The position numbers and the translations under genes were made by a program. The notes under the pieces are model-generated. The model made no database searches and had not been told where the DNA came from. It worked only from the letters and a program-made list of their open reading frames with translations. 64,000 nt of DNA from positions 2,170,001 to 2,234,000 of the forward strand of contig CM102284.1 in NCBI GenBank assembly GCA_046563655.1. The letters run 5' to 3'. Of the stretch, positions 1 through 64,000 are shown one piece after another (within the stretch, counting starts at the first letter, position 1; every line of letters starts with the position of its first letter). The DNA is from Yuukianura sp. NJ FZ-2021. Lineage: Eukaryota.

Positions 1-1572
1 GCTGGAGTGTGATGCAAAGTTTCGTTGAGATATAATTGTGAATATTGTGGAGCACTGTCTTCTACAATTAATACAAATAACAACTGAATTAGTTCGAACA
101 AACTAATCGTAAGTTAAACTAATCGTAAGTTAAGATAACATTCAATTACTTGAATTACTTATTACTTATAGAAGCAGCTTACCTGGACCATGTGGCGATG
201 GAAATGAAGCTACGAGCAGAAACGGTTGATTTGGTCTTCTAGGCTTTGGTTGAGGAGGAGACGGAGGAGCGAAACTTCCACTTCCCTCTTCATCATCTTC
301 AGCATCGGAAGTTAACAGATCTTCATTTGTAAATACGTCGTCACCATCATCGTCAGGGATAGGATTTGCCATGCGTTCCAGAAACTTGACAGTATCATTT
401 GCAATTGAGTCTCTGTAAATTCAAAAATGAGGTGTTGAAACGGAAGTTAGAAGGAATTGTCAAAGTTTCGGCCTTACGGATAGTAGTCTCGCTGGTAGTT
501 GTTTCCATAACGGACATTCACTCCATTGCGATTTACTGTGTAATTGTAGAATCTTGAGTTCATCAAAAGGGCATTCCAGTCATCCCAGCCCATCTAACCA
601 AAATAAAATTGAATTCAATTATGGCCAATAGCGCCGCATTTAGCCACGATCGGTAAAGAAAGACTTACGGGAATATGAGATCCATCGTATTTGTTCAAGT
701 ATTTTCCGATATAGGAAGTAAAGTAGCCAGAACCCTGAAGGTAGGCAGCAAATGTCTTGAATTCAAACTTTTCTCTCCAGAATATGCTGCTGCAGTTGTC
801 GTTATTTGTGTAAACTTGATGGTTGTGGACATACCTGAATTCAAGGATAACATCGAACGTTTAAAAAACTTAAAGAAAATTGTAGGCTTTTCTGCTTACA
901 ATCCAGTTAGCATGGAACTTCGAGAAGGGCAGCACATCGGCGTAGTGACATAGCCGTGTCGAAATTCCACTCCATTTTCTCGAAATGCCTTCAAGGTTTC
1001 TGGCATGTACTCCATGCTACCTATGAAAAATGAAATGTTACACCAAAATTCCGGTAACGAAGCGTTAAATGGACTAACCTAGTTCAATATCTTGATCATC
1101 AGTTAGGATAAGAATTATGTTTGGTCTAGGTCCCTTTCCTTCACGTCCTCCATGATACTTTGACTCTGTTCGTCCATGAACACGTTTCGGTTGTTGGGTA
1201 GTCCGACCTGTCAAATCCAAAAATCAAAATCCTCCAGTTACTTCACTGTTACTGTTACTGATATAGTAAATTAAGAAAACAAAGAGTAAATTGAGAAATT
1301 AACTGACCTCTTGGCTTCCTGTCAACTTCCCAAAAAGCATCTGATTTGGGCGGAAACAATGGATTAGAATTGTCATCTCCTGCTTCTTGACCCCTTCGCC
1401 TTCCACGAACCGTTGCTCCGTCAGTATTTCGATATCGGTATCTGTCACCCCCGTTTTCCAGTTTACGTTGAGCCTCGTCCAGGTCAAAGGTACGCAATCC
1501 ACTAACCCAGTCACATAACATTACCAAGTAAATAACTAAACTGCAAGTACTTACAAATTGATTAAATAACAT
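1..1572 (-). CDS. Sulf1: Extracellular heparan-sulfate 6-O-endosulfatase (Sulf1-like), 5' part; continues off the left edge
   Basis: Spliced exons ~1572-1308, 1207-1079, ~1020-898, ~833-670, ~593-478, ~413-183 and ~62-1 give a signal peptide, [23 protein letters not shown], the sulfatase motif [31 protein letters not shown] and [21 protein letters not shown]. These are hallmark SULF sequences, with GT-AG junctions in frame. Confidence 0.95.
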
Positions 1573-1641
1573 TATAAACAACACAACTGAGTTCACTTTC
1601 AATAAAGAAAGTAATTTAAATAATTTTAAAATTTTACATTA

Positions 1642-1938
1642 GGCAGGGTAAGCATGTTTTGTAATCTGAAATCTAGGTACATTGAAAACCAGAAATCGTA
1701 ATGTAGAGGAGTGAGGGTAAGCAAATTTTTCTTAAATGTAGGAGTAAATTTGAATCTAGAGGTTTGCCGCGCGAGAATTTCTCACTTCTCTTTTGAAAAA
1801 CTCCGAACTCTAGATTCAGATTCAAAAACCGAGACGAGTTTTAGGAAAAGGAGAATTGCAATGTAGATTTGAACTCCCGCCAGCTCTACATCACAAAATC
1901 GCTCTCTAGATTTCAGATTGCAAAATGCTTACCCTGCC
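1642..1938. mobile_element. MITE with ~35-bp terminal inverted repeats, flanked by TA
   Basis: Left GGCAGGGTAAGCATGTTTTGTAATCTGAAATCTAG versus reverse complement of right end GGCAGGGTAAGCATTTTGCAATCTGAAATCTAG. TA on both sides; no coding capacity. Confidence 0.8.
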
Positions 1939-2749
1939 TATTCTCTTATACCTAAGTTTCTTCTGTTTTTGTTTTTCCAACTTTTATTTTCTTTTTTTTT
2001 TTTTTTGAAAAAGAAAACAAAGGGACTTTTCACTCAAAAGTTGTGCCTTTGAGTTTTGGGTTTGCCACTTGTGGTTGAGACTCCAACAATTTGAATCTGA
2101 CAGTTAGAACAAAAAAAAAAGCTGACAAAAACTAATGAGAATCTTAATTAGTTAACACTAATAATCCTACTCTTTCAACGGTAATTAAACTTTTTAATGT
2201 ATAGTATAGGTTGATGCATTTGGCAGGGAAAAAAACCGAAACTAGTACAACCCATCGTCTCTCTTCGTAAAATTAATAAAACCGCGGCAAATTCAAATTT
2301 TGAAAACAAAGAATTTTATAAAGTGCGCCAGGTTGCGTTGGGGCAAGGTTCAACGACCAGCATTTCAATCGCACAGTGTTTCCACTTTGCGGCTAACGTC
2401 GTTGGCTGCACTATATGGCTACTTGTTTTGTTGCCACTTTAGGTTTGGTATTCATAAGTTAGAGCGTCTACAAATATTGCCACTAGATGTAGCCGCCAAT
2501 TGTAGACATACAAGATGTGCGGGTGGCTACAATGACGGTCGATAATCCATGATACAAGCCACGTGCCCGTGCATTAGCCGAAAATAAAATAAAATTGTCG
2601 CCCATTTCCAAGCAAAGTCGGTTTTCAATCTGTTTGTTTTGAAATTTCTAACAAAAATAGGGAAAATTAATCAGTTAATAGCCAATTAATATACCAAAAA
2701 GTAGTAGAAGGACTGTGCGGTGTTGAGTTCGATTAACAGGGAGATCGAG

Positions 2750-4939
2750 ATGGAGGGTTTGTCGAAAAAGAAGCAATTTTGCTGGCAGACATTTTGGAAA
2801 CGTGAGAAGACGAAGAGGATATTAGTAGTGTTGATTTTGTTTGCTGTACTTGGCATAGTAATTTGGTATTATGCTCTGTATTATCATTTCCGCCGACAAT
2901 TCCAGTATGGAACAAAGATAGTTCGACGTAAGCTACTAAAAGTATTCAATTAACTAGTAGGAACACAGATGAGAATTAGGCCGAGATGCTACTTTATTAC
3001 TTTGTCGTTTTACTGACTATAGGTTGTTTTGTATTTGCAGTGGACTCACCCACGACTTGTGACATTCCAGTCATTGACCCCTTTTCGACACTTGGGAATG
3101 TTATGATCGAAGCGGAAGGAACAATCGCTGGAGCTCCACTCTGTATCGGTGCTGCCATAAAGTTTAAAGTGGAGTATGAAAAATCTAGATTGGTCCGGGA
3201 CGACTTTGACGCTGAATTCTGGAAAACTGTGGATTGCTGCTACTCGTCGTTTCGTTGGGATTGGGGTTCAGTGAACCAATCTCTACTGTAAATACTTACC
3301 AATTAATCAACCTCCGCTAAATAGGCAAGGAAGCACTGTTTAGCTTATCACTCCTTTAACTTCTTTTTTCAGTAATGGGTCGAACTGTTTTCCCATCGAC
3401 AGTAAATATACGACTGTTCCCATTCAACATATTAACTTGGACATCAAGTGCAGCGACAAACAAACTCACAACATTGTCTACCGAGATCAACTTCCAATTT
3501 TTCGAATACGTCCGGAAATCGAAGCGAAGGTTGATAAAGTTTCTTTTAACACAAAGAACAAGAAGGACCGGATGTCAGTTGTTATTCTTGGCCTGGATTC
3601 CGTCTCACACCCAAATTTCATTCGGTACATGCCAAAGTCTCGCAAATTTCTTTTAGAAAATCTCTCAGCCATCGAGTTTCACGGGTTCAACAAAGTTGGA
3701 AAGGGAACACTAGAAAATCTTATTGCTATGTTTAGTGGATGCCAATTCAATTCATTCGGACTAGCATCACCCGTAGAAGATCACTGCAAGTTGCTTTGGA
3801 AGTATTACCACGACAGAGGATTCAGAACCGTATACTTTGAAGATAATTCGTTCAATGAACAGCACGTCTTTTCCAGAATTCTAAAAAATAGTAGTTCTGG
3901 GGTGGTTTCGCACTATAATTTCTCCGATTTCGTGCGTGGGATGAAATGGATTGATGAACATGAAATGCAAAACAGTTACGAAGACGGTTATGGATGCTTT
4001 GACAATCAATTTTTGATGGACGTCTATACTCAACCAATTATCGAAATCGCCAAAATGTTTTTGAGGAAGCCATATTTCCACTTCACTTGGTTTGGTAAAA
4101 CAACCCATGTTGTCATGCGCAATACAAAATTCAGTGACGATCCTCTCCACAGAATCATGACACAACTCCGGGACCTCCAGCTACTCAAAAACACCATTCT
4201 GATCGTCTTATCCGATCACGGTCCATGGTATGGGGATTATGTAGCCAGTCCTGTTGGTATACTGGAGCGATCAATGCCTGTCCTTTACGTCGCATTTCCA
4301 AAATCCTTCAAGAAAAAGTACCCTGTGGCACTGCGTAACATGAAACTGAATAGCAAGCGACTAACGACTCACTACGATCTATACGAAACCCTCGTTCACC
4401 TATCAAATCCGACCAACCTGAAAAATAAACACCTAAAACAACGGAACGAGACGCAGCGGAATTCAAATCGTTTCGGACAGAGTCTCTTCCTGCCTGTTCG
4501 ACTGGACAGAACCTGCGAAACTGCCAACATTCCTTTGGAATTTTGTATGTGCTGGAGCCATTTCCCAATTGTCCGACCGGAGTCTGTGGTCGAAGTTCAA
4601 CAAGCAGCGACATATGCAGTTATTCATCTCAATTCAGAGCTACAGTTGTTTCCACATTGTGCTCGCCTCGAGTTGGAGCACATAAAGGCAGCAAACTGGC
4701 TCTATTCTAGTGCGGAAGACAAGAAATCGAACGACAGAAGCAGTCGCCAGCGATTTGTGGATGTGACGTTTACGACGTCTCCATCGGATGCTGAATTTTT
4801 CGTGACAGTGGAGTTTCACCCGACGTTGAAGATCCATGGTAACGTATTACGGAATAATATTTACAAAGGGGAAAGTGATTGTATTAGTTCGTGGGAAAAT
4901 GCGACTTATGCAAAAACTATGTGCTACTGTATGCAGTAA
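2750..4939 (+). CDS. DUF229-family (alkaline phosphatase/sulfatase-like fold) type II membrane protein
   Basis: Exons 2750-2927, 3041-3287 and 3373-4939 splice in frame. N-terminal TM (ILVVLILFAVLGIVIWYY); DUF229-type motifs MSVVILGLDSVSHPNFIRYMPK, GFNKVG, LSDHG, RLTTHYDLYETL, GQSLFLPV..RTC..ANIP..FCMC and terminal CYC. AATAAA at ~4968. Confidence 0.9.
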
Positions 4940-5145
4940 GTATGTCTTGTGTTTTATTTATTAACCTAATAAATTGTGAATTAACTTTTATTAACATTGT
5001 AAACTGTGTTGCTCAGTTTTTATTTGTTGGACACAAGGAAATCGTGAGTTGTGACGCAGTTGCGACAATTCATCTATATTCGCGGGGAAAAATAATTTTG
5101 AATTTGCAAAGTCCGTTTTTTCGGGTGACCTAACATTAAAGAAAT

Positions 5146-5310
5146 ATATCCTAAGTGGCAACATTTGTAGCCGCTCGAACTTAAAACACCATTATCCTAA
5201 ATATCCTAAAGTGACAACATTTGTAGCCAAGAAAAACTTATCCTAAACTGGGAACATTTGTAGCCGCTCGAACTTAAAATTATCCTAAAGTAGCAACAAC
5301 ATAAGTAGCC
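5146..5310. repeat. Degenerate tandem subterminal repeat (~4 units of TATCCTAAA-GTGGCAACATTTGTAGCC[GCTCGAACTTAAAA])
   Basis: Units visible at ~5147, ~5202, ~5239 and ~5281; they form part of the right arm of the CACAGTG element. Confidence 0.8.
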
Positions 5311-5884
5311 GAAATTTTAGCCATCTAGTGCAACCGCATAGTGGGTACACTGTGGTTAATCCTTACGCCAACCGAACAAAAAATTGAATTGCGTTTGTTT
5401 TTGTTTCCATATGATGACGAGACAGCTGAGAGAGATTTTATCCTGGACTTTCTCGGTTTAATTTGGTTAATTTATTAGGGACTCTGAATTTAAGGTTGTT
5501 CTGCTTCTTCAGAACTTACTTGTTACAACAAAACAAGGAACGAGTACTGAGCTGGTACTGCTGAACTCAGGTAATGTGGATCCATCTTAGTACTAAGTAT
5601 ACATTGTCGAAAGTTCAATAAAAAAAAGTTATTCACATCGTTCGTGCTTATAATAATATATGATGTAAAACTTGACATACAGCTTTTATTGATTACAAGT
5701 GACGTAAACCACAACAACAAATTATACATCGATTTTATAGTTCGTTAGGATACGCAATATTTGGTACCCCATTAACACAAACAAGGCCTAGCTAAATGGT
5801 TTTTTGATTGTTTCAGCTTTCAGCGCTTGGCAAAACGGCACGTTTCAGACTTGAAAATAGGTGCGTCTTCGACCAACGACTAGT

Positions 5885-7785
5885 ATGGTAAGTTGAATTC
5901 TATTTTAATACCCTCAGTTTCTTTGATTGATTGATGACATACTTTTCCAGGATGGAAACTGGCCATCATCAGACTCTCGTCGACCTTCTTCCGGAGGAAT
6001 CATTCCGCCTTCTAACACACAGCGACAGCAGTCGCAAACATCCGCATCAGATGATGAGGAAGAAGATGAGGAATCCGAGTCCTCGGCTCTGTTTAACTTC
6101 AGAAAACAATGGTTACACTACTATCCAATGATACGACGGCACTGCTAAGTGGAGTTACATTTGCAATGACTGATTTTGAATTTTTCAACAGGGAAGCAGA
6201 GCTAAAGAATGTTGCAACAGGACAGAAAGGTCACAAGAACAACACTCCCACGCAACTGTCAACCGGTTCTTCAGTGCCGTTCAGCAACACTCCCACGCAG
6301 TTGTCTGCTGCATCACCATCAAATGCAAACTCCTGCTCTCCGCGACGTCAATCCACCTCTCATACTCCGATTCCACCAGTCGGATCTTCTCCAACTGACA
6401 AGATAGAAGAGGAGGCCAAAAAGTTCTTTTTGATGGGAGTAAGTTTCGAGCGAAGAGGGGATTTGTATGACGCTGTGCGGTTCTATCGAAGAGCAATGCA
6501 GTTGGTTCCTGACATTGAGCGTCTTGTTCAAATGGAACTTCTAGAAGATGAAGTTGGCGGAGGTCAAGGAAATGGACAACTTGAGGACGAACCAAGTGAG
6601 AACCGGGCAACTGGAAGCGAAGAAGTGGACGATGAATCAGATGAGAGATCCCTGTATGGTAAATTCATTCAACGAATTGAGGCCAATGGGTGGAAATTCT
6701 TTGCCAAAGGAAAGGACGACGACAAAGTCCATTTCTCTGACTTTCCTGTCGAAATCCTTATTTACATTTTGAGGTAAATGTAAACATATAATTTATTTTT
6801 AAGTTAATTAAACATTGATTTACAATTATAAGCGGAATTTGTGCTAACATTTTTGATTTATTTTAGGTGGGTGATTTCAAGTGATTTGGACGTAAGGAGT
6901 TTGGATACTCTTGCTACCGTTTGTCGAGGATTCTACTGCTTGAGTCGTGATGAAAAGTTGTGGAAAATGGCATGTGACAGGTAAGCTTTTCGTTTCGTAT
7001 TTGAGTTAATGTAAAAACAAATTGTAATTTGTAGAGTGTGGAAATCTTGTGATATCATGGGATCACAATTCTCCACCTACCGTGAAATGTTTCTGAATCG
7101 ACCTCGAGTTCGTTTTGACGGGTGCTATATCAGCAGAATCACTTACGTCAGACCTGGAGAACATTCGTTCCAGGATGCTTCATACAGGTTCGGTTCGTTC
7201 ATCTACCAAATGTAGACGGAAATTCCTAATTTTTTAAATTTTTGAAGCTTTTTTTTAATTATTCTGTGTTTTAGGCCGTGGCACATGGTGGAATATTTTC
7301 GTTACATCAGATTCTTCCCAGACGGGAAACTCCTATTTCTTACTACAGCTGAGAAGCCTGCAGTCACCGTGGGACTGTTGAGGAGAGACGCAACTTCTCG
7401 AAATCCAACTGTGTTGAGGGGGACGTATCATCTCTATGGAAACAACGTCATCTCAGCATCAGTACGCAAAGTATCCGTGTCACAGTCTCAAGGGGCTGGG
7501 TCAGGACGACCTGGAAAGAACATCAAATCAGCCTTGGAAACCGTAACTGAATTTCAAATGGACTTTGAAATAGAGGAGCTGAAGGGGAAGAGCAATTGGG
7601 TCCTTCGCTGGACCTACTACGCTGTGTACATCAACAACACCAACATCAGAACCAACAACAATGGAGACTTACATGGTGGCGGTGGGATCACGACTACGTT
7701 CGAACTGAGTCCCACCAAGTACCCACCACTTTATTTTTCACGAGTCAAATCCTACACACTCAATTCTGAGGGAATCCTGGAATGA
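5885..7785 (+). CDS. FBXO9: F-box only protein 9
   Basis: ATG|gt at 5885-5887, then exons 5951-6111, 6192-6773, ~6868-6981, ~7035-7187 and ~7275-7785. They encode FRKQWEAEL, TPR-like [36 protein letters not shown]-box [44 protein letters not shown] and [16 protein letters not shown]. Confidence 0.95.
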
Positions 7786-19403: not shown

Positions 19404-21224
19404 ATGCCGACACACTCTATAGGCTACGCTGCCCAAGACGATTCTGGAACTCTAGCTCCGTGGAAGGCAAGTCCGATTCAAGTTAAACATAATTTTTTGA
19501 AATTTTGAATTTCAAAAGTTTTTTTTTTAATTTCAGTTTGAACAACGTGACCTTCGACCAGAAGACGTCAGAATTAGAATCGTCGCTTGCGGAATTTGTC
19601 AGACGGATGTTCACTGTGGAAAGAATCATTGGAAAATCACGTCGTATCCTTTCATCCCAGGTACTAAATGCATTACCCAACATTGCTCAGGGTCACCATT
19701 TATGTCAAAAGGCTGAAATTCTGTTTTACTTTTGTTGAAGGTCACGAGATAACTGGTTACGTTGAAGCCGTGGGACCAGACGTGTCAAAGGTCAAAGTTG
19801 GAGACAAAGCAGCAGTTGGAATCCTGATAGACTGTTGTCGCTCCTGTGACCAATGTCAACAGAGTCAGGAACAATATTGTGCTAAACGTGTGCTCCATGG
19901 CATGGGACTGCTCAGGAATGGCGGCCAGTCTTACGGTGGCTACGCTCGGGACATTGTCGTTGAGGTAAAAATCGCAAACTACTAATAGAAAATGCTGGAA
20001 TACTGAGACTACTAAAAATATGTGTGAAATAATATTTAAAATATTGACTGACTTCTTAAACAACAGGAAAAGTTTGTTTGTCGGTTTCCGGATTCCCTGG
20101 ATATGTACGCTGGCTCTGCATTACTCTGCGCAGGAATCACTGTTTACTCCAGCATGAAGAAATTCGGAATGGACAAGCAACCTGGAAAGACTCTTGGGGT
20201 CATTGGACTAGGAGGTCAGGTTAAGTCAATTCTAACTAACCTAGCTTAAGTTAAACCTAGCTACTTTGTTTAGGATAGTAAGTCACGTGTAGCATGCCAT
20301 TGCTCCGAATGAATTCCCTCGAATCCAATTATCCCGAAAGGTAAATTCCTCCGAAGCACAAAATTACTCCAAATTTGAATAAACTTACGTTAACATGCTC
20401 AGCGTTAAGTCTAGAACATGTTATAAATCGTAAGTTTAGCTTTGGTTATGCTAACGATTATGAGATTAATATACTTGGTTGAGTTAGAATTCATAAGGTA
20501 TAATTGTAGTTTCCGAGTCTCTCCGAATCTGAATTTCGGAGCGATTTGTATTCGATGCAATCCATTTGGAGCAATGAGCTTAGGAACAATTCATTCGGAG
20601 GAATGGCATGGAACAAAATCTATGAATTGTAGTTTGTATTTTTTTGAATCTACAGGACTTGGTCACATGGCAGTGAAATTCGGAGTGGCGTTTGGGCTTG
20701 ACGTTACTGTTTTGTCTCGTTCAGAAACCAAACGCCACGAAGCAACAACTGTACTCGGAGCTCAGCATTTTCTCAATACTGGAGAAGAACAAACGTTCAA
20801 AAAAGCTATCCAAAGTTTGCACTTCATAATTGACACTGCCGGAGCCCATAAGGACATGGACGCTTACTTGTCACTCCTTCGCGTTGACGGAATCATGGTT
20901 CTGGTTGGCGTTCCAGAAAAACCACTTCAGGTACTAAAACTTTTTCCAAAATTTGAACAATTTAAAAGTTCCAAATTCAAACCACTTTTTTTTTAGATCA
21001 ATGGAAATTTATTAATCGACGCACGCCGAGTTTTGACTGGAAGTATAATTGGAAGTATTGAGGAAACTGAGGAAATGCTCAAGTTTTGTGCAGAGAATAG
21101 CATTACAGCAATTATCGAGAAAGTGCCCATGGACTATGTGAACACTGCTTGGAAACGACTAATGGCATCCAATGTCCACTACCGCTTCGTCTTGGATATT
21201 CAAAATAGTTGCCCACCAATCTAA
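19404..21224 (+). CDS. Zn-dependent NADP(H) alcohol dehydrogenase/aldehyde reductase, cinnamyl-ADH (CAD/YahK/AdhC) type
   Basis: Exons 19404-19466, 19537-~19661, ~19741-19964, ~20067-20214, ~20657-20930 and ~20998-21224. They encode [36 protein letters not shown], structural-Zn [64 protein letters not shown] and [16 protein letters not shown] at ~19177. Confidence 0.93.
20293..20612. mobile_element. MITE family A, copy 2 (in ADH intron 4)
   Basis: CATGCCATTGCTCCGAATGAATT ... AATTCATTCGGAGGAATGGCATG inverted ends. Confidence 0.85.
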
Positions 21225-26716: not shown

Positions 26717-28236
26717 TTATTGTGACGTTTGTTTTTTCGTTCCTCCAAATCGAACTGGAAGGTCAGCGAGATTTACGTGTTTGGAGATTTCTGCCTGCTG
26801 TTCTTTTCGGTCGTATCCAAACACTAGTAAGCTCTCCGAAGTTGACTTCGACAATACATTTCTCAAAAGTTTCACAATCGGGTCAAGGACACGCGGAGCT
26901 AGAGACGTCGAATCAATTAGCTCATGTAGTAGCAGATTTTTTTTTTAAATGACCTACCGTTGATGGCAATAAGCCTGTAGAAGTTGTACGGGTAATGCTG
27001 CTCATGGAAGACACCCCAGTTAAGGTACAATGGAATACCTAATAAGTGGTCAATGTTTCGCGTCATTACACAAGATATATAATTCACATCTAACTAAACT
27101 GTCGCGAATTTTGAAATTATAAGGCACTTACATTTGGGACACCCGTGCGTCTTCACCGAAAATCCATTATAGTCGGCGATAACTAATGATGATGGCTCTC
27201 CCGTAACATTGTAACTCAGTTGCGCCGCTTTTTCTTCCGTTACAGTCAGTCGAAAGCTCAAGTCAGACACTTTACCCTCCAAAGCTTTACGGCGTATGTT
27301 CCAATCGCCGTAGGGAAACAAAACAACTTTAAACAACATTAATTAAAATTTAAACAAATTTTTATACCTAATCTCAAAAAAAAAATTAACAATGATTATG
27401 GAAATATTATTTGTGTGAGTTATTTGATGCAGTTACTTGGTCTCCCTTCTTTGTCTTTCGCTGTAGTGAGGTCAATGACGTATCTTTTTTCCAAATCAGG
27501 ATCAAATTTATAGTTAGGTAAATTGTCTGCATCAACCGACTTACGCCACTCCAGGGTCTAGAAGCATAAGAAATTAATATATGAAATTGGAAATTTCAAA
27601 ACTTATTAGGCCACCTATTATTTCAAAATTTCAAAACTTGAATAAGTAAAATTCGTAATTAAAAATTTGCGTAAGTTTGGGAGTTTTTTTTTTGGTTCCA
27701 TTCGACATTTTAACAAAAACAAGGTGCGTCATATTATATTTGTCAGTTTCGATCAAGCTGCTTACATTACTACTAAACATTTTTCACTTACTTTCTCCAG
27801 TGCTTCTCGTGCGTTTTTGTGATTAAAATCCTTTGCTGAAAATATAAAAAAAGAAGCTAATTTTCATTTAAAAAAAAAACAATGTAGTGGCTGTAATCGT
27901 TACGTTGAGATGAGAGTTACCTTTCAGCCATTTGATTAAATAAGCATCGGATTTCATATAGGGCGCCGTCAATTTACCAGCTACAGCTTGTCTCAACTAC
28001 AGAGTATAAAAATGCACTAAATTAATAAAATAAGTTTCTTTGAATTGAAGTTAATTAACCTAAGCATTTCTTGAAGACATAAAATACAAAATTCACAGTG
28101 ATTAAAAACTGACCTTATCGATGTGTATTTTTTCCTTTGCTGTAAACACCGGAGGATTTGCGCCATTAGTCGCAATGACTCCCAGACAAAAAAGTGGTAG
28201 AATTAATTTTAACTTGAAAATTGTTTCCATTTTCAT
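26717..28236 (-). CDS. SEC14-like/CRAL-TRIO lipid-binding protein with N-terminal signal peptide, copy 1 (7 exons)
   Basis: Spliced product: KLILPLFCLGVIATNGA.., LRQAVAG..SDAYLIKWLKAKDFNHKNAREALEKTLEWRK (CRAL-TRIO_N), DKEGRP, IADYNGFSVK, HYPYNFYRLIAINAPRVLDPIVKL, LADLPVRFGGT. Confidence 0.88.
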
Positions 28237-33619: not shown

Positions 33620-36265
33620 TTACGCATGTTTCTTCGTTCCTCCAAATCGAACTGGAAGGTCCGCGAGGTTTACGTGTTTGGAGAGTTCTGCCTGTTGTTC
33701 ATTTCGGTTGTATCCAAATATTAGTAACGACTTTTTAGTTGACTCCGAAAGTAGGTTTCTCGTCATTTTCACAATTTGGTCGAAGACTCGCGGAGCTAGA
33801 AATGTTGACTCAATTAGTTCCTGCAGTTCAATGCTATTAGGCCGTATGAATTTGGTTATCAGCCACTAAGCCCTATGAAATACACCCTAAACTGTTAGGT
33901 CCTCATTGTGTTTAGCCCTAAGCAATTAGACTCGCAGAATTTTTTTAATTGTAGTGTTAGTTAGCGTGACAACGGGCTTCATGTCTTTATTTCATGAAGC
34001 CACGTATTGAAACATCAATACACTTCGTAATTTGCATAAGGGCATCGATGATGCCCAAGCTTTGGTATTGAAAGCATTAATCACTACGATCAATTTAATA
34101 ACTTACCGCTGGAAAATCAACGTAGAGTACAGAATGTTACCGGTTTGAATATTATATTGCTCATCATGGCTTTGAAAGCCTAAAACTTCTGAGGGTCTGG
34201 AGTGCAGAGGCAGAGGGTATAAAGATTTAGGGCCTAATTATTTAGCGTCTAAACACAATGAGGGCCTACAAGTTTAGAGTGTAATAGGGCCTAGTGGCTG
34301 AGGGCCGAATTCATAGGGCTAATCGTGTGCTTTGGTTCATGCAGTTGAAACGGTGTATTTAGCAACAAGTTAAACGGATTCACTTACCGTTAATACCTAT
34401 AAGCCTGTAGTAGTTGTATGGATAATGGAGCTCATGCACGACACACCAGTTAAAGTAGAACGCAACACCTAATGGGTAGGTAATGTTTAACATCATTACA
34501 TACGATACATAATTCGCATCTAAGCAATGACATAATAATTCCCACAAAAGTGCAGACACAATAGCCATGCTATTACCTAAGGTGTGCAAAGTAACAATGA
34601 ACAACATTTTCTAACCACTCGCTACTGATGAAGTAACGGTGATTTACATAACTAATTTTAAGAATGTCGTAGTGGACATATCTGCGGTTACGACGTATTT
34701 CAAACATATGGGTCAGACATTAAGTGAACCTACAAAATTCCTTGATGTTCATACTACATACTACTGCATAGTGGTTGAGTACTACTAGGAAGTCTGTTGT
34801 AGGTACTACAATAATTTTGAAACTAGCGCGAGTTTTGAAATTTCAAGGTACTTACATCCGGTACATATGTGCTTTTTTAGTGAAAATCCATTCAGGTCGG
34901 CCAGAAGCAATGATAATGGCTCTCCCGTAACGTTGTAACTCATTTGGGCTGAAATTTCTTCCGCTACAGTCATACGTAGGCCCAACTCAGACACGATTTT
35001 ACCCTCCAGGGCCTTACGGCGCAAGTCCCAATCGCCGAAAGGAAACAAAAGAACTTTAAACAAAATTAGTCAAAATTTAAGCAAATTTTTACCCTATTTC
35101 AAAAAAAAATATAATAATCATAATAAACAAAGGCAAAGTAAATATTCAAGGTTCGTAAGCAAAAATAAAACTTTTTCTACAACAGGTTTTCCGATAACTC
35201 GAAGTGCTAAATTTTGTTTGAAAGTAGCAAATCTGCCTTTCTATTGTAATATGTTGCAAGTAATTTAAATAGGATTAGTGCTAAATTGTTGCTAGAAGTT
35301 GTTTGAAGCAAGATTTTTAAAAACCTTGAGTTAATGGACAACCTTGTTGTAGGAAATACAATTTAGTAGTCAAGGAACCTTGCAAATATTATTTGTGTTA
35401 GCTATTTTTTGTGGTTACCTGGTCTCCCTTTTTTGTCTTTCACAGTAGTGTAGTCAACGATGTATTTCTTTTCCAAAGCAGGATCAAATTTGTACTTAGG
35501 CAAATTGTCTGCGTCAACTGACTTACGCCACTCCAGGGTCTGGGAAGGAATAACAAATTAAATATATAATTAGAGATTACAAAATTGGTTGGTTATATGC
35601 ATATAATATAATAGGTGCTATAAATGTAATTATTGTAGTTATAAATATACAGTAATAGTAATTCGAGTTCTGTAGTTCCTACTACCACTGAATAAATTAT
35701 GTTTGTCTAATAAATCGCTGGCCACAATGACTGTTCTTACAACCTTTGTGAATTCGTACTAGTCAATTAATCAAGAGTTATGCGCAGGACGAGTTGTTCC
35801 TAACAATTTTCGCTTACTTTTTCGAGTGCTTCTCGTGCCTTCTTGTGATCAAATTTTTTTGCTGGAAATATTAAAAAAAAAGTTTTTAAAAATAATTTTG
35901 TCTTTTCAGTAATAAAAAAGTAACATGTTTTGTTTGTTACGTAAAGCGTTACCTTTTAGCCACTTGATTAAATAAGCATCGGATTTCATATATTCTGCCG
36001 TCAATTTTCCAGCTACAGCTTGCCTCAACTAAAGAATATAAAAATGCACTAAATTAATAAAATACGTTTATTTAAATTAAAGTTAATTAATCTAAGTATT
36101 TCCAGAAGATATAAAATACAAAATTCACATTAATTAAGAAATGACCTTGTCGATGTGTATCTTTTCTTTTGCTGTAAACACTGGAGGATTTGCGCCAACA
36201 GTCGCTAGTACTCCAACACAAAAAGTAAGTGACAGAATTAACTTCAATTTGAAAGTTTCTGCCAT
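33620..36265 (-). CDS. SEC14-like/CRAL-TRIO protein with signal peptide, copy 4
   Basis: MAETFKLKLILSLTFCVGVLATVGANPP...LADLPVRFGGTKKHA*; 7 exons, with two introns expanded by MITEs. Confidence 0.87.
33836..34323. mobile_element. MITE/foldback element with ~95-bp imperfect TIRs in the last intron of SEC14 copy 4
   Basis: ATTAGGCCGTATGAATTTGG..CAGCCACTAAGCCCTAT..CCTCATTGTGTTTAG is inverted to CTAAACACAATGAGG..ATAGGGCCTAGTGGCTGA..CCGAATTCATAGGGCTAAT; absent from the same intron in paralogs. Confidence 0.85.
35147..35382. mobile_element. hAT-like MITE family B, copy 1
   Basis: CAAGGTTC...GAACCTTG ends, internal TACAACAGGTT/AACCTTGTTGTAG inverted segments, 8-bp TSD TAAATATT/CAAATATT. The empty site is seen in paralogous SEC14 introns. 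Confidence 0.8.
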
Positions 36266-40110: not shown

Positions 40111-41763
40111 TTATTGTAAAGCTTGTTTCTTCGTTCCTCCAAACCGAACTGGAATGTCATCGAGATTTGCGTGTTTGGAAATTTCTGCTTGTTGTTCCTT
40201 TCGGTCGTATCCAAATACTAGTAAAGACTTTGAAGTTGACTCCGACATTAAGTTTCTTACCAACTTCACAATTGGGTCAAAAACTCTCGGAGCTAGAAAC
40301 ATTGAATCAATAATTAGTTCATGAAGTTGGAGCGGTACTTTGGTAAGAGAATGACCTACCGTTGATGGCTATCATCCTGTAGAAGTTGTATGGGTAATAA
40401 AGCTCATGGAAGACAGTCCAGTGAACGTACAATGGAATACCTAAAAAGTAGATAATGCTTGGCATCATTACACGAGATACATAATTCACATCTAGTCAAT
40501 CACTTAAGTCACAAGAATGCATACATACAAAAGTCGTGCAATTACGTACGTCTTCCAACGTAGCCAACGTTATAGATCACAATTACAACGTAGCCTATGT
40601 AATTGTGATCTATAACTAATTGCAAGACATATTGAGTTAATTAATGTTCATACTACCTATTACTAACATAGTCGAGTAAGAAGCTGTTACGCGACAGATT
40701 TGAAACTGGTGCGAGTTTTGAAATTTTAAGGTTACTTACATTTTGTGCATCCTTGCTTCTTTAACGAAAATCCACTAAGGTCGGCAATAAGTAATGATAA
40801 TGGCTCTCCAGTAACATTGTAGCTCAGTTGCGCCATTTTTTCCTCCCATGCATTCAGCAAAAGGCCCAATTCAGACACGAGTTTACCCTCTAGTGCCTTA
40901 CGGCGCATGTTCCACTCTCCGAGAGGAAACAATGAAACTATAAACAACATTAATCAAAATTTTAACACTCTTAAACCAAATTTTGAAAAAAGGAGAATTA
41001 AACCAGCATCATGGGAATACTATTTGTGTTGATTATTTTATATGGTTTACTTGGTCTCCCCTCCTTGTCTTTACATGTAGTGTAGTCAATGACGTATTGC
41101 TTTTCCAATTCAGGATCAAGCTTATAGTAAGGTAAGTTGTCTGCATCAACCGACTTACGCCACTCCAGGGTCTAGTAAGCATTACAAATTAATACATTTT
41201 ATATTAATATTATATTTTTATATAAAATTTATGATTTATGTATAGCATGTTTTGTGTAAAACTACGATAAGGTTATTTCTAACATTTTTTACTTACTTTC
41301 TGCAGTGCTTCCCGTGCCATTTCGTGATCAAATTGTTTTGCTGGAAATATATTTAAAAACACAAATTAATAAAAAAAAATTGTGTTTTGAGTAAAATTAG
41401 TATTGCTTAGTATTGGTTACGTTGAAGTTACGTTACCTTTGAGCCACTTGATTAAATAAGCATCGGATTCCATGTAATGTGCCGTCAATTTACCAGCTAC
41501 AGCTTGTCTCAACTAAAGAATATAACAATCATGTACTAATGAAATAAATAATAAAATAAGTTCATTAAAATTAGAATTAATTAACTTTAGGCATTTCCTG
41601 AAGCCATAAAATACAAAATGCATGGTGATTAGTAAGAACTGACCTTATCGATGGCTTCTTTTTCTTTTGCTGTAAACACTGGAGGATGTGCGGAATTTGT
41701 CTCAATCAATCCAAGACAAAACGTAAGTGACAAAACTAATTTCAAATTGAACATTGGTTTCAT
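40111..41763 (-). CDS. SEC14-like/CRAL-TRIO protein with signal peptide, copy 6
   Basis: MKPMFNLKLVLSLTFCLGLIETNSAHPP...LDDIPVRFGGTKKQALQ*; 7 exons. Confidence 0.87.
40569..40616. repeat. Perfect 19-bp inverted repeat with 10-nt loop (intronic hairpin)
   Basis: GTTATAGATCACAATTACA-ACGTAGCCTA-TGTAATTGTGATCTATAAC. Confidence 0.9.
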
Positions 41764-60677: not shown

Positions 60678-61895
60678 TTAGTAAGTGGTATTTCTGATTA
60701 GGTTTTGGAAGTATTCAAATGCACAAACGGATGGTTTGTTAGCAAACTCTTCCATTTGTGACGGCGGTTTGACGATTGGTTTCACTTCCACTTCAGCGTC
60801 GGGATTGATGGAGAAGATACAACTTTGTCTTGGATTTGTAAGCAAGCGCTCCTCATCCATAATGCGAACTCGATGTGGCTAAAACCAAAAATAAATCAAT
60901 TTTAAACAGTTTTTGGAGAGAAGAATTTCAAGAGGTCAAAGGTCACCGTACCGTTGCTGGAAAGTGGCCAGCCGACCAGCGTTCTAAAAGTTGTCCAGTG
61001 TTGATCAAAATCGAATCTTTGACTGGAACTGCCGGCACCCATTCTCCATTGGTTCTCTTTGCCTCCAGCCCACCAATCATATCCTGTTTTCAAAAAAAAA
61101 TCTTACTTTACCGAAAAATTAAAAAAGAATTTTTTTTTTGAAATTTTGCTTGGAATAGAAGAGTAATTGTTCCCCAGTCAGTGTGCTCTCCGCACCGAAT
61201 TGCATTTTTTGGAATGTCGCTGAGAGAACTTCTGTCGAGCGGGTAATAGTAGAGTGACCTGAATCCTGACTGCGTCTTTTTGTTTTCGGGAAAGTCCATC
61301 CAGGAGTGATTCTTGACAAAGTACTCTTCATCCTCCAGTTTCAAGTAAATTCCAAGACATCGTAGCAGTTTCTTGACCAAATTCACGCAATCCTTTCGCA
61401 GAGAATCAAAATCTTCTTTGAGTCCAGGCACTTCCGACGGAAAACCGGCAATGTCGAAGGCCCGTGGCCACCAAAAGTCAAACGATTCCTTCAATTCGGT
61501 TGAATTTTTCAGCGTTTCATTTAAAAGTTCGTCTCCAGGACGAGAGTACCCGTGATAGTCTTCTGCTGGATCTTCCTTTCGGTATTTATCTTTTGTCTCT
61601 TGCGGCAGGTTGAAGAATGTTTTCGATTTTCGGTGAATCTCTTCCACCTAAAGTATAGAGCAGAAGTTTTCTAAAATACTCAAAGCGCTTTAGAAGTAAT
61701 ATAAACTGTTTTCAGAAACTCTTTCTTTTTGAAACTCACAATGTTCATGTCCACTCCGTGGTTGACGAGATATGCAAAGCCTATTCCTGTCATGGCGTCT
61801 GTGACTTCTATTGCGAAATTTGCCATTTCTGCATTTTGCAAATCGGCGTAATTCCCCGCGACACTTGAGCAATCGATAGTCACAATGCCATTCAT
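60678..61895 (-). CDS. 2-oxoglutarate/Fe(II) oxygenase, isopenicillin-N-synthase-like (DIOX_N + 2OG-FeII_Oxy), copy A
   Basis: 4 exons encoding IVTIDCS..GIGFAYLVNHGV, FFNLPQETKDKY, RCGEHTDWGTITLLFQDMIGGLE, INTGQLLERWSAG..PHRV and RQS (HxD...H and RxS motifs). The intron 2 donor is a weak GC. Confidence 0.88.
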
Positions 61896-62530
61896 TTCAG
61901 CTTGCGACTTAAATTTGATATGTCAGCCAATTTTCTTCTTAAACTCTTGCTTTGTTTTAATATTTTTGATTTTTTTAAACTTTATGTTTTGTGCTTAAAA
62001 ATCCTTCAAAAGTTCCTTTCAATGAGACTGGCACTGAAAACATGAGTTTTATGTAACGGAGTGTACGGTTAATCTTTTAAACTTCTCTTAACTTCAGAAG
62101 GACCAATATATATTGCGTTTGCGTGTAATTTAAACAGTCTGAATGTTGAAATTTGAAACACAAACTTGTGTTAAATGATCTTTAGACGACCTTTCCATGT
62201 TGTTTACGTGTGTATCTGAATGAGTTGGTCCCATTGAAGCGTCCGGTTAATATTTGGGCAAGACATTTGACTGTTGACATTTAATAGTCTCGAGGTAACT
62301 TAAAGTGATTAGTAAACCAACCGTTAAGAAAACAAGATTTCTTGCTTCATCGTCGCTGTTTGTAAGCTCCGTAAACAAACGACAACTCTGCCCATTAAAA
62401 TTTTCAAAGAAAAAGCTTTAAAGAAACCTGTACCAGAACCTAAAAACTTCTTTTTGAAAAAGTGGAATTTTCAATTCCATTGCTGTTATAATTCAACAAA
62501 AATTCGAGTTTTTGTTTTCATTTTAGCGGG

Positions 62531-63775
62531 TTAGTAATTTTTGGAATTTTTGATGAGGTTTTGGTAGTGTTCAAAAGCGAAAACTGAAGGTATTTTGGCA
62601 AATTCTTCCTTTTCTGAAGGTGGCTCGACGATTGGTTTCACTTCCACTTCAGCATCGGGATTGATGAAAAAGATGCAACTTTGTCTTGCATTTGTAAGGA
62701 GTCGCTCCTCATCCACAATTCGAACTCGATGAGGCTAAAATTAAAAAAAAATTGTAAAGAATTTTTATACGAAAGTTTTCAGGAGGTCAAAGGTCACCGT
62801 ACCGTTGCTGGAAAGTGGCCAGCCGACCAGCGCTCCAGAAGTTGTCCAGTGTTGATCAAAATGGAATCTTTCACTGGAACTGCCGGCACCCACTCTCCAT
62901 TTGTCCTCTTTACCTCCAGTCCCCCAATCATATCCTGTCGTTCAAAAAATATAAATTTTGGTTGAAAATTTTGAAACTTTTTTTTTGAAATTTAGTTTTA
63001 GTACTTGAAATAGAAGCGTGATTGTGCCCCAGTCTGAGTGTTCTCCGCACCGAATAGCGTTTTGCGGAATGTCGCTGAGAGAATTTCGGTCGAGCGGGTA
63101 GTAGTAAAGTGACCTGAACTGCGTCTGCGTCTTTTTGTATCCAGGAAAATCCATCCAGGAATGATTCTTAATAAAGTACTCTTCATCTTCCAGGTTCAAG
63201 TAAATCCCAAGACATCGCAGCAGTTTTTTGGCCAGGTTTACGCACTGCTGTCGCAGAGAATCAAAATCTTCTTTGAGTCCGGGTACCTCTGATGGAAAAT
63301 AGTCAGGGTCGAAGGCCCGAGGCCCCCAAATGTCAAAAAACTCCCGCAATTCGGTTGAATTTTTCTGCGTTTCATTTAAAAGTTCGTCTCCAGGACGAGA
63401 GTAGCCGTGAAAGTCTTCTGCTGGATCTTCCTTTCGGTATTTATCTTTTGTCTCTTGAGGCAGGTTGAAGAATTTTTTTGTTTTTCGGTGTATCTCTTCC
63501 AACTAGAGTACAAAACCACAAAAAATTAGTTTCGCAAAACTAAATTTTTCTAAACCTACAAAAATGTAAAACTATTCTAAAAAATGTTTTAGAAACCTCT
63601 TTTTTTGGGTGAAACTCACAATATTCATGTCTACTCCATGGTTTACGAGATATGCAAAGCCTATTCCTGTCATAGCATCTGTAAATTCTTTTGCGAAATC
63701 CGGCAAGTCTGCATCTTTCAAATCGGCATATTCACCCGCGACGCTTGAGCAGTCGATAGTCACGATTTCTTGCAT
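62531..63775 (-). CDS. 2-oxoglutarate/Fe(II) oxygenase, isopenicillin-N-synthase-like, copy B
   Basis: Tandem paralog with the same 4 exons; HSDWG, PHRV, RQS; all junctions GT-AG. Confidence 0.92.
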
Positions 63776-64000
63776 TTCTGTTTCAGACGTGAAAAAACTT
63801 TATGACTTCACACAATTATTTCTGTTCTAAACACTTATTTTTCTTTTAAAATTTTTGATACTGTTTTAAAGTTTATTTGCTGTGTTGGAAAAATTCCGTC
63901 TTCAACTTCAATTAAATTAACACTGCACTGAGAACGTGAGTTTTATGGAGAGTGGACAAAGACGTCTGTGTGGTTTATCTTGACTTCAAAAAGACAGAAA

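Follow-up and report, generated by a model that had tools for sequence, protein, structure and literature searches.

Cut-and-paste transposons with host sequence between their ends have been described in animals. In animal Pack-TIRs, non-autonomous elements with terminal inverted repeats (TIRs), the cargo consists mostly of gene fragments with a median length of 224 bp (Tan et al., 2021; PMC8277862). Near-whole gene cargo is known from the foldback-type TIR element Ssk-FB4 of Drosophila melanogaster, in which a host gene with untranslated regions, exons and introns lies between inverted ends made of short repeats (PMC8277862). Its target-site duplications (TSDs) measure 9-10 bp, its parent gene is known, it exists in several copies, and its insertion sites are polymorphic. 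Transib elements and their non-autonomous families start with CAC. Each 38-bp end opens with CACAATG, which is followed after 23 bp of spacer by an A-rich nonamer; the CAC and positions 5-6 of the nonamer are invariant. The elements make 5-bp TSDs in GC-rich targets (Kapitonov and Jurka, 2005; PMC1131882). A 2026 preprint reports Transib lineages whose TSDs and TIRs are non-canonical (10.64898/2026.08.26.747230). More generally, EnSpm, Mirage, Chapaev, Transib and related lineages, the CMCT clade, have in common termini of the form CA..TG or CAC..GTG and TSDs of 2-5 bp (PMC12730594). The present analysis concerns a stretch of 64,000 nucleotides, here called the window, from Yuukianura sp. NJ FZ-2021 (GenBank assembly GCA_046563655.1, contig CM102284.1, positions 2,170,001 to 2,234,000 of the forward strand), in which a complete DUF229 gene is enclosed by two inverted arms that both open with CACAGTG.

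The best explanation, to which a probability of about 0.4 is assigned, is that the arms are the decayed ends of one old non-autonomous cut-and-paste element with the whole DUF229 gene as its cargo. In its layout the unit resembles Ssk-FB4 and the animal Pack-TIRs (PMC8277862). It differs from Ssk-FB4 in having none of the four features listed above, and from most Pack-TIRs in carrying a complete 2.2-kb gene.

Inverted arms and the enclosed DUF229 gene

Arms, gene, neighbours and open reading frames (ORFs) were analysed over the 64-kb window, which is AT-rich (37% G+C) and arthropod-like in its sequence. When 2200-2700 was aligned locally with the reverse complement of 5000-5500, a pair of inverted segments (Table 1) emerged with a score of 75. 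As 200 shuffles gave 21.4 +/- 2.4 and a maximum of 31, chance can be rejected as the origin of this likeness. The arms are about 81% alike overall and agree at 19 of the 23 outermost nucleotides. CACAGTG itself occurs nine times on the two strands of the window and is not rare, whereas a 21-nt terminal pattern matches solely at the two arm ends (0.02 matches expected by chance). A 20-nt subterminal motif, allowed up to three mismatches, is likewise confined to the arms (four copies, 0.02 expected), with one copy in the left arm (+) and three in the right arm (-), where a 34-nt unit is repeated three times, spaced and not head to tail. The arms lie 2983 bp apart, with one complete gene and no other between them; they are homologous, one-ended and outward-facing, and blastn of both arms detected neither an inward-facing terminus nor a further arm copy in the window.

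Other searches with the arms returned little. Tandem Repeats Finder found no array scoring above 30 on the arms except a 9-nt doublet, Rfam gave no match over 1500-6000 at E values up to 1, and the terminal 21-mer pattern had no match in the viral contigs. Nine matches of the motif pattern in prokaryote genome contigs were estimated to be at about chance level, and none was used.

The stretch is contained in five public runs. Four of them (X1-X4) come from one sample of an organism called A here, and the fifth (X5), with 0.32 of the sampled words present, from organism B in a separate study. Contigs of X1, X2, X3 and X5 were compared with the window at a likeness threshold of 80%. Contigs of organism A cross both arm/flank junctions (2171-2748 in X3 and 5253-5831 in X2), which shows that the arrangement did not arise by misassembly of the window. 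Runs X1, X2 and X3 each have 5-8 contigs whose match is limited to a 33-nt unit, 5154-5186, and which differ from the window on either side of it. The letters next to these matches resemble a preceding tandem unit and not the spacers of the window locus, and therefore the unit is also present in tandem arrays elsewhere. Because it recurs in other sequence contexts, the arms belong to a repeat family, and, given the homologous sequence on both sides and the recurring unit, they are probably the ends of a transposon-like one.

These results bear out much of a preliminary description of the locus, made from the sequence alone, which had reported two inverted homologous arms ending in CACAGTG, a subterminal repeat shared between them and, enclosed by them, the 5' region, three exons and polyadenylation signal of a DUF229 gene; its treatment of the arms as transposon-like ends is reasonable in view of their outward orientation, their arrays and the recurrence of the unit. 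The stated extent of about 130 nt has to be revised: the homology is real and covers 106-111 nt, and the right-arm repeat array reaches inward to about 5139.

The three exons of the DUF229 gene are separated by GT/AG introns and form an open frame of 663 amino acids. Exon 3 has a Pfam DUF229 match (1.9e-85) and includes an SDHG stretch of the sulfatase metal-site type (1.1e-09); exon 2 alone has no Pfam match, and a sequence search of the PDB with the protein yielded none. Homologue alignments end at 4930, two codons ahead of the stop, in eight of nine cases and at 4954 in the ninth. The best named relatives, from Diptera and a damselfly, show about 30% identity. The closest relative is encoded by a metagenome contig (locus L001, 9692-13577) and is 59% identical across exon 3. 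A single colinear match spanning residues 60-661, in which the subject has about 21 additional residues, shows 55% identity, and exons 2 and 3 are both colinear. Arm homology is absent from this contig, and the neighbours of its DUF229 gene differ from those in the window, with an alkaline phosphatase downstream and a class II aminoacyl-tRNA synthetase far upstream. Among eight exonic differences between organisms A and B, a partial list, five are synonymous third-position changes and three alter a residue, a hint that the gene may be under constraint.

Two further observations concern the gene. DUF229, sulfatase and alkaline phosphatase all belong to the alkaline-phosphatase superfamily. The DUF229 gene adjoins a sulfatase gene in the window (169-4939) and an alkaline phosphatase gene in L001 (9692-13577), maybe by coincidence. 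In addition, one X3 contig that matches from 4264, in the middle of exon 3, is preceded by 255 unlike letters; it could derive from a structural variant or a paralogue, or be chimeric.

Table 1. Features of the arms, the DUF229 gene and its neighbours (window coordinates)
Feature	Position	Strand	Basis or remark
Sulfatase gene, 5' exons	169..1575	-	Pfam Sulfatase 5.7e-08 (899-1078) and 0.0011; signal-peptide-like start near 1575
Possible outward continuation of the inverted homology, left	2337..2354	+	Pairs with 5355-5372 at 14/18; weak
Left arm core, homologous to right arm	2372..2482	+	CACAGTG at 2372-2378; aligns with reverse complement of 5249-5354, 84/104 ungapped columns identical; motif-like sequence reaches inward to ~2540
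Single 20-nt subterminal motif copy of the left arm	2466..2485	+	3 mismatches
DUF229 exon 1	2750..2927	+	ATG at 2750; hydrophobic N-terminal membrane anchor read from translation
DUF229 exon 2	3041..3287	+	Homologues P0007, P0008 and locus L001 align over it
DUF229 exon 3	3373..4939	+	Stop TAA 4937-4939
AATAAA polyadenylation signal	4968..4973	+	Read from sequence
Right arm including repeat array	5139..5354	-	Core 5249-5354; terminal CACAGTG 5348-5354
Right-arm 34-nt units	5153-5186, 5209-5242, 5246-5279	-	Repeat search and motif scan
Partner of 2337-2354	5355..5372	-	Directly abuts the right heptamer
F-box-only (FBXO9-like) gene	5400..7785	+	FBO_C 1.3e-09; TPR_2 weak, 0.0039

Origin of the arm-gene-arm unit

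If the arms are the remains of a single element, it would have been a non-autonomous cut-and-paste DNA transposon with CAC...GTG termini, old and now immobile, of which a left and a right end survive in decayed form. The arrays of the 20-34-nt subterminal repeat would presumably have served as transposase-binding sites. Following the model put forward for animal Pack-TIRs, double-strand-break repair or template switching may have exchanged the interior of the element for a copy of a host gene. Such a capture could have occurred where the unit now lies, or it could have preceded a single transposition into the promoter-rich gap that separates the sulfatase gene from the FBXO9-like gene, and the captured DUF229 gene would have retained its own promoter region, introns and polyadenylation signal and would remain constrained. 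Capture of the gene is plausible, given that exactly one gene is bracketed by arms that each have a single, outward-facing terminus. The lack of arms and the different neighbours of the closest relative, as well as the precedent of Ssk-FB4, also speak for it. The stronger claim that an arthropod transposon with ends like a recombination signal sequence (RSS), CACAGTG, packaged a whole intron-bearing and still constrained enzyme gene and delivered it between two unrelated genes is more tentative and somewhat doubtful.

A number of results weigh against the capture of the gene by one element. The first group concerns copies and polymorphism. A second copy of the whole unit was not found in the contigs of X1, X2, X3 and X5, nor was a contig joining 2371 to 5355, as an empty site would. 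In the same four runs no parent copy of the DUF229 gene with at least 80% identity, which a Pack-TIR should have, was detected, the listed gene-body pieces all being the locus itself; older or more diverged parents lie below the reach of this threshold. The arm-gene-arm arrangement is present in both organisms A and B, and the DUF229 gene of the metagenome contig may be a paralogue. To this can be added that Pack-TIR cargo is mostly fragmentary in animals and that no Pack-TIR was found in insect reference genomes (PMC8277862).

The second group concerns the target site. The 5-bp flanks, AATCG and GTTAA, agree at one of five positions, and no TSD of another length from 2 to 7 bp is present either (0/2 for 2 bp, 0/3 for 3 bp, 1/4 for 4 bp, 0/6 for 6 bp and 1/7 for 7 bp). 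With arms that are still 81% alike, a 5-bp TSD should by the same measure match at about four of its five positions.

Contig depth counts partly for and partly against the single element, and summed depth in the runs does not equal copy number. In its favour, depth is higher on the arm bins than in the gene body, with 133 and 99-102 versus about 55 in X1, and 544 and 430-522 versus about 208 in X2. In X5 the corresponding values are 57-61 over 2304-2605 and about 5 in the gene body; here depth is raised over the left-arm region and not over the right arm, which counts against it. A neighbouring miniature inverted-repeat transposable element (MITE) at 1640-1940, which served as a control of known type, reaches 13-16 times the baseline depth, and its loose ends fall sharply at 1906 and 1940-1942. 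Since the arms show nothing as clear, their family is small in organism A. A joint of 2424 and 5184 on opposite strands was not counted as another locus; its depth is about haploid, and it was read as the second haplotype of the left arm.

The position of the ends yields conflicting signals. A terminus at CACAGTG is favoured by organism B and a minor haplotype of X2, whose alignment to the window is lost from 5299 and picked up again at 5356, 56 letters of the window being replaced by 66 others. As it resumes one base past the right terminus, 5354/5355 is a real structural boundary. The listed X5 pieces leave parts of the arms (2350-2416 and 5300-5355) uncovered, and these parts carry no inference. 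Against such a terminus, a weak outward pairing beyond the heptamers (Table 1) has 17 extra nucleotides before CACAGTG on the left side. Its match was reached by 5 of 500 random window pairs and its chained score by 21 of 500; under stricter scoring, 95 of 1000 reached it and the 18-nt pairing was not significant. Two X2 contigs begin to match exactly at 2337, which could alternatively reflect a very divergent second haplotype. If the outward homology of about 18 nt holds, CACAGTG would not be the true end of the element. A short AT-rich motif (GCAAATTCAAATTT-like, about 12-14 nt) was also noticed just beyond the outer end of each arm (2287-2301 and 5378-5392) and at the right arm's inner edge (5093-5107); it is not significant alone.

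In a rival explanation, the DUF229 gene is resident and the arms represent two separate events of one repeat family, either independent insertions or a local hop into the open promoter regions on its two sides, with their inner parts lost. Cut-and-paste elements favour promoters and local re-insertion, and both arms occupy promoter-side gaps between genes. The missing TSD across the unit, the mere 81% likeness of the arms, the unequal motif copies (one on the left versus three on the right) and the lack of a second DUF229 copy in the run contigs agree with such a history. It must, however, account for the fact that two complete MITE insertions would give each arm a pair of termini, and the second, inward terminus was found by blastn in the window at neither arm. 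Nor does the family occur in the 64 kb outside the two arms. Two insertions within 3 kb, both with their termini outward, and two losses of an inner end would have to coincide, and for these reasons a single element is the more parsimonious choice; two independent events are considered unlikely. A single MITE split by an inversion was rejected, since its two ends would then share one orientation and one of the termini would point inward.

It is also conceivable that the arms have no mobile function and are paired inverted arrays of protein-binding sites, possibly derived from a transposon and co-opted, or the product of a local inverted duplication. They might then serve as boundaries or promoter modules and shield DUF229 from the promoters of its sulfatase and FBXO9 neighbours. 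Each arm falls exactly on a gene boundary and is built of short repeated motifs, both arms are kept in both haplotypes and both organisms, and under this explanation no TSD is expected. The arm unit may resemble insect CTCF-type sites. Strong constraint is difficult to reconcile with the left arm, which differs between haplotypes by about 12% plus indels (X2), and the occurrence of the unit in tandem arrays elsewhere also counts against this origin. It is judged improbable, and the decayed single element is preferred to it.

Termini and the proposed Transib assignment

The preliminary description had attributed the unit to a non-autonomous Transib-like element, Transib being a group with a RAG1-like transposase. 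CACAGTG is present on both arms with CAC intact, differs from the Transib heptamer CACAATG at one of seven positions (PMC1131882) and is identical to the RSS heptamer. The lineages with non-canonical TSDs and TIRs in the preprint (10.64898/2026.08.26.747230) would leave some room for a deviating family. The other Transib features looked for in the window are absent. The flanks hold no 5-bp TSD and are AT-rich, with 3/10 G+C in the 10 nt either side. The invariant AA at nonamer positions 5-6 was found on neither arm at spacers of 22-24 bp, and at a spacer of 12 bp in the left arm only (GGCTAACGT). Long subterminal repeat arrays, as carried by the arms, are not mentioned for Transib ends in the excerpts of PMC1131882 and the preprint (10.64898/2026.08.26.747230). 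Finally, no transposase family, including the RAG1/Transib type, was matched in Pfam by any of 130 window ORFs. These were drawn from 142 ORFs of at least 75 amino acids, the 12 omitted overlapping longer ORFs (seven of them within the DUF229 gene).

The three caveats that accompanied the original assignment (no TSD, no nonamer, no transposase in the window) are therefore upheld, and the assignment itself is not. CAC-type termini had been taken as a sign of Transib; the heptamer does fit, but CAC...GTG ends also occur in EnSpm, Mirage and Chapaev (PMC12730594). Because such ends are shared by the whole clade, the heptamer does not single out Transib, and capture of the DUF229 gene by a Transib element in particular is very improbable.

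Both arms have the CA..TG / CAC..GTG terminus of the CMCT clade. CACTA ends carry subterminal repeats, as the window arms do in asymmetric arrays, and Pack-CACTA elements exist in plants. The arms share CAC...GTG termini with the EnSpm/CACTA-Mirage-Chapaev group (PMC12730594); unlike members of the clade, the unit lacks the expected 2-5-bp TSD (0/2, 0/3, 1/4 and 1/5). Judged by sequence, the termini fit the clade generally and not Transib particularly. A hAT origin, for which an 8-bp TSD would be expected, was excluded, the third terminal base being C and not G. The 8-bp flanks are equal at five of eight positions, which is not significant after nine lengths tried.

Neighbouring genes and implications

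The genes on both sides of the unit are transcribed away from it, as the preliminary description had stated, with the sulfatase gene on the minus strand and the FBXO9-like gene on the plus strand; the name Sulf1 given to the former holds to family level. The 5' non-coding exon of the FBXO9-like gene begins less than about 100 nt from the right arm and ends at a GT near 5569, and its start codon lies near 5953. The control element mentioned above, located in the 5' region of the sulfatase gene, is a high-copy MITE of 300 bp (1640-1940) with 35-nt terminal inverted repeats and flanks that possibly carry a TA or ATT duplication. Between this MITE and the DUF229 gene, the haplotypes of organism A differ over non-coding sequence (2022-2691) by about 10-12% substitutions and many indels; the part from 2022 to 2305, for instance, has 28 substitutions and 25 gap letters. 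They merge into a single contig over the DUF229 exons.

Three observations were made elsewhere in the window. A two-exon gene for a zinc-type alcohol dehydrogenase (ADH) lies at 19668-20993 (+; ADH_N, ADH_zinc_N). When its 189-amino-acid exon was searched against proteins of 332-2000 amino acids, the named matches were bacterial NAD(P)-dependent ADHs, the top rows with 48-61% identity across about half the exon. By these matches the gene is a candidate for horizontal acquisition, or its family may be rare in animals. At 61111-63799 (-), two tandem genes possess exons for DIOX_N, the N-terminal domain of 2-oxoglutarate-dependent dioxygenases, a family unusual in animal genomes. Exons matching CRAL_TRIO on the minus strand at 26720-26944, 33623-33865 and 40114-40368, about 6.5-7 kb apart, suggest a tandem array of paralogues.

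At present the arm-gene-arm unit is a well-documented candidate for gene capture, whose link to RAG and Transib goes back to a heptamer shared by a clade. If an arthropod transposon with RSS-like ends did package and deliver the gene, the unit would be a complete-gene Pack-TIR in an animal group in which a survey of reference genomes found none. If it moved in its entirety, the unit would add a rare case, among animals, of a DNA transposon relocating a complete working gene and not a fragment. The capture would then also provide a concrete route by which the poorly understood DUF229 enzyme family could have spread in arthropods.

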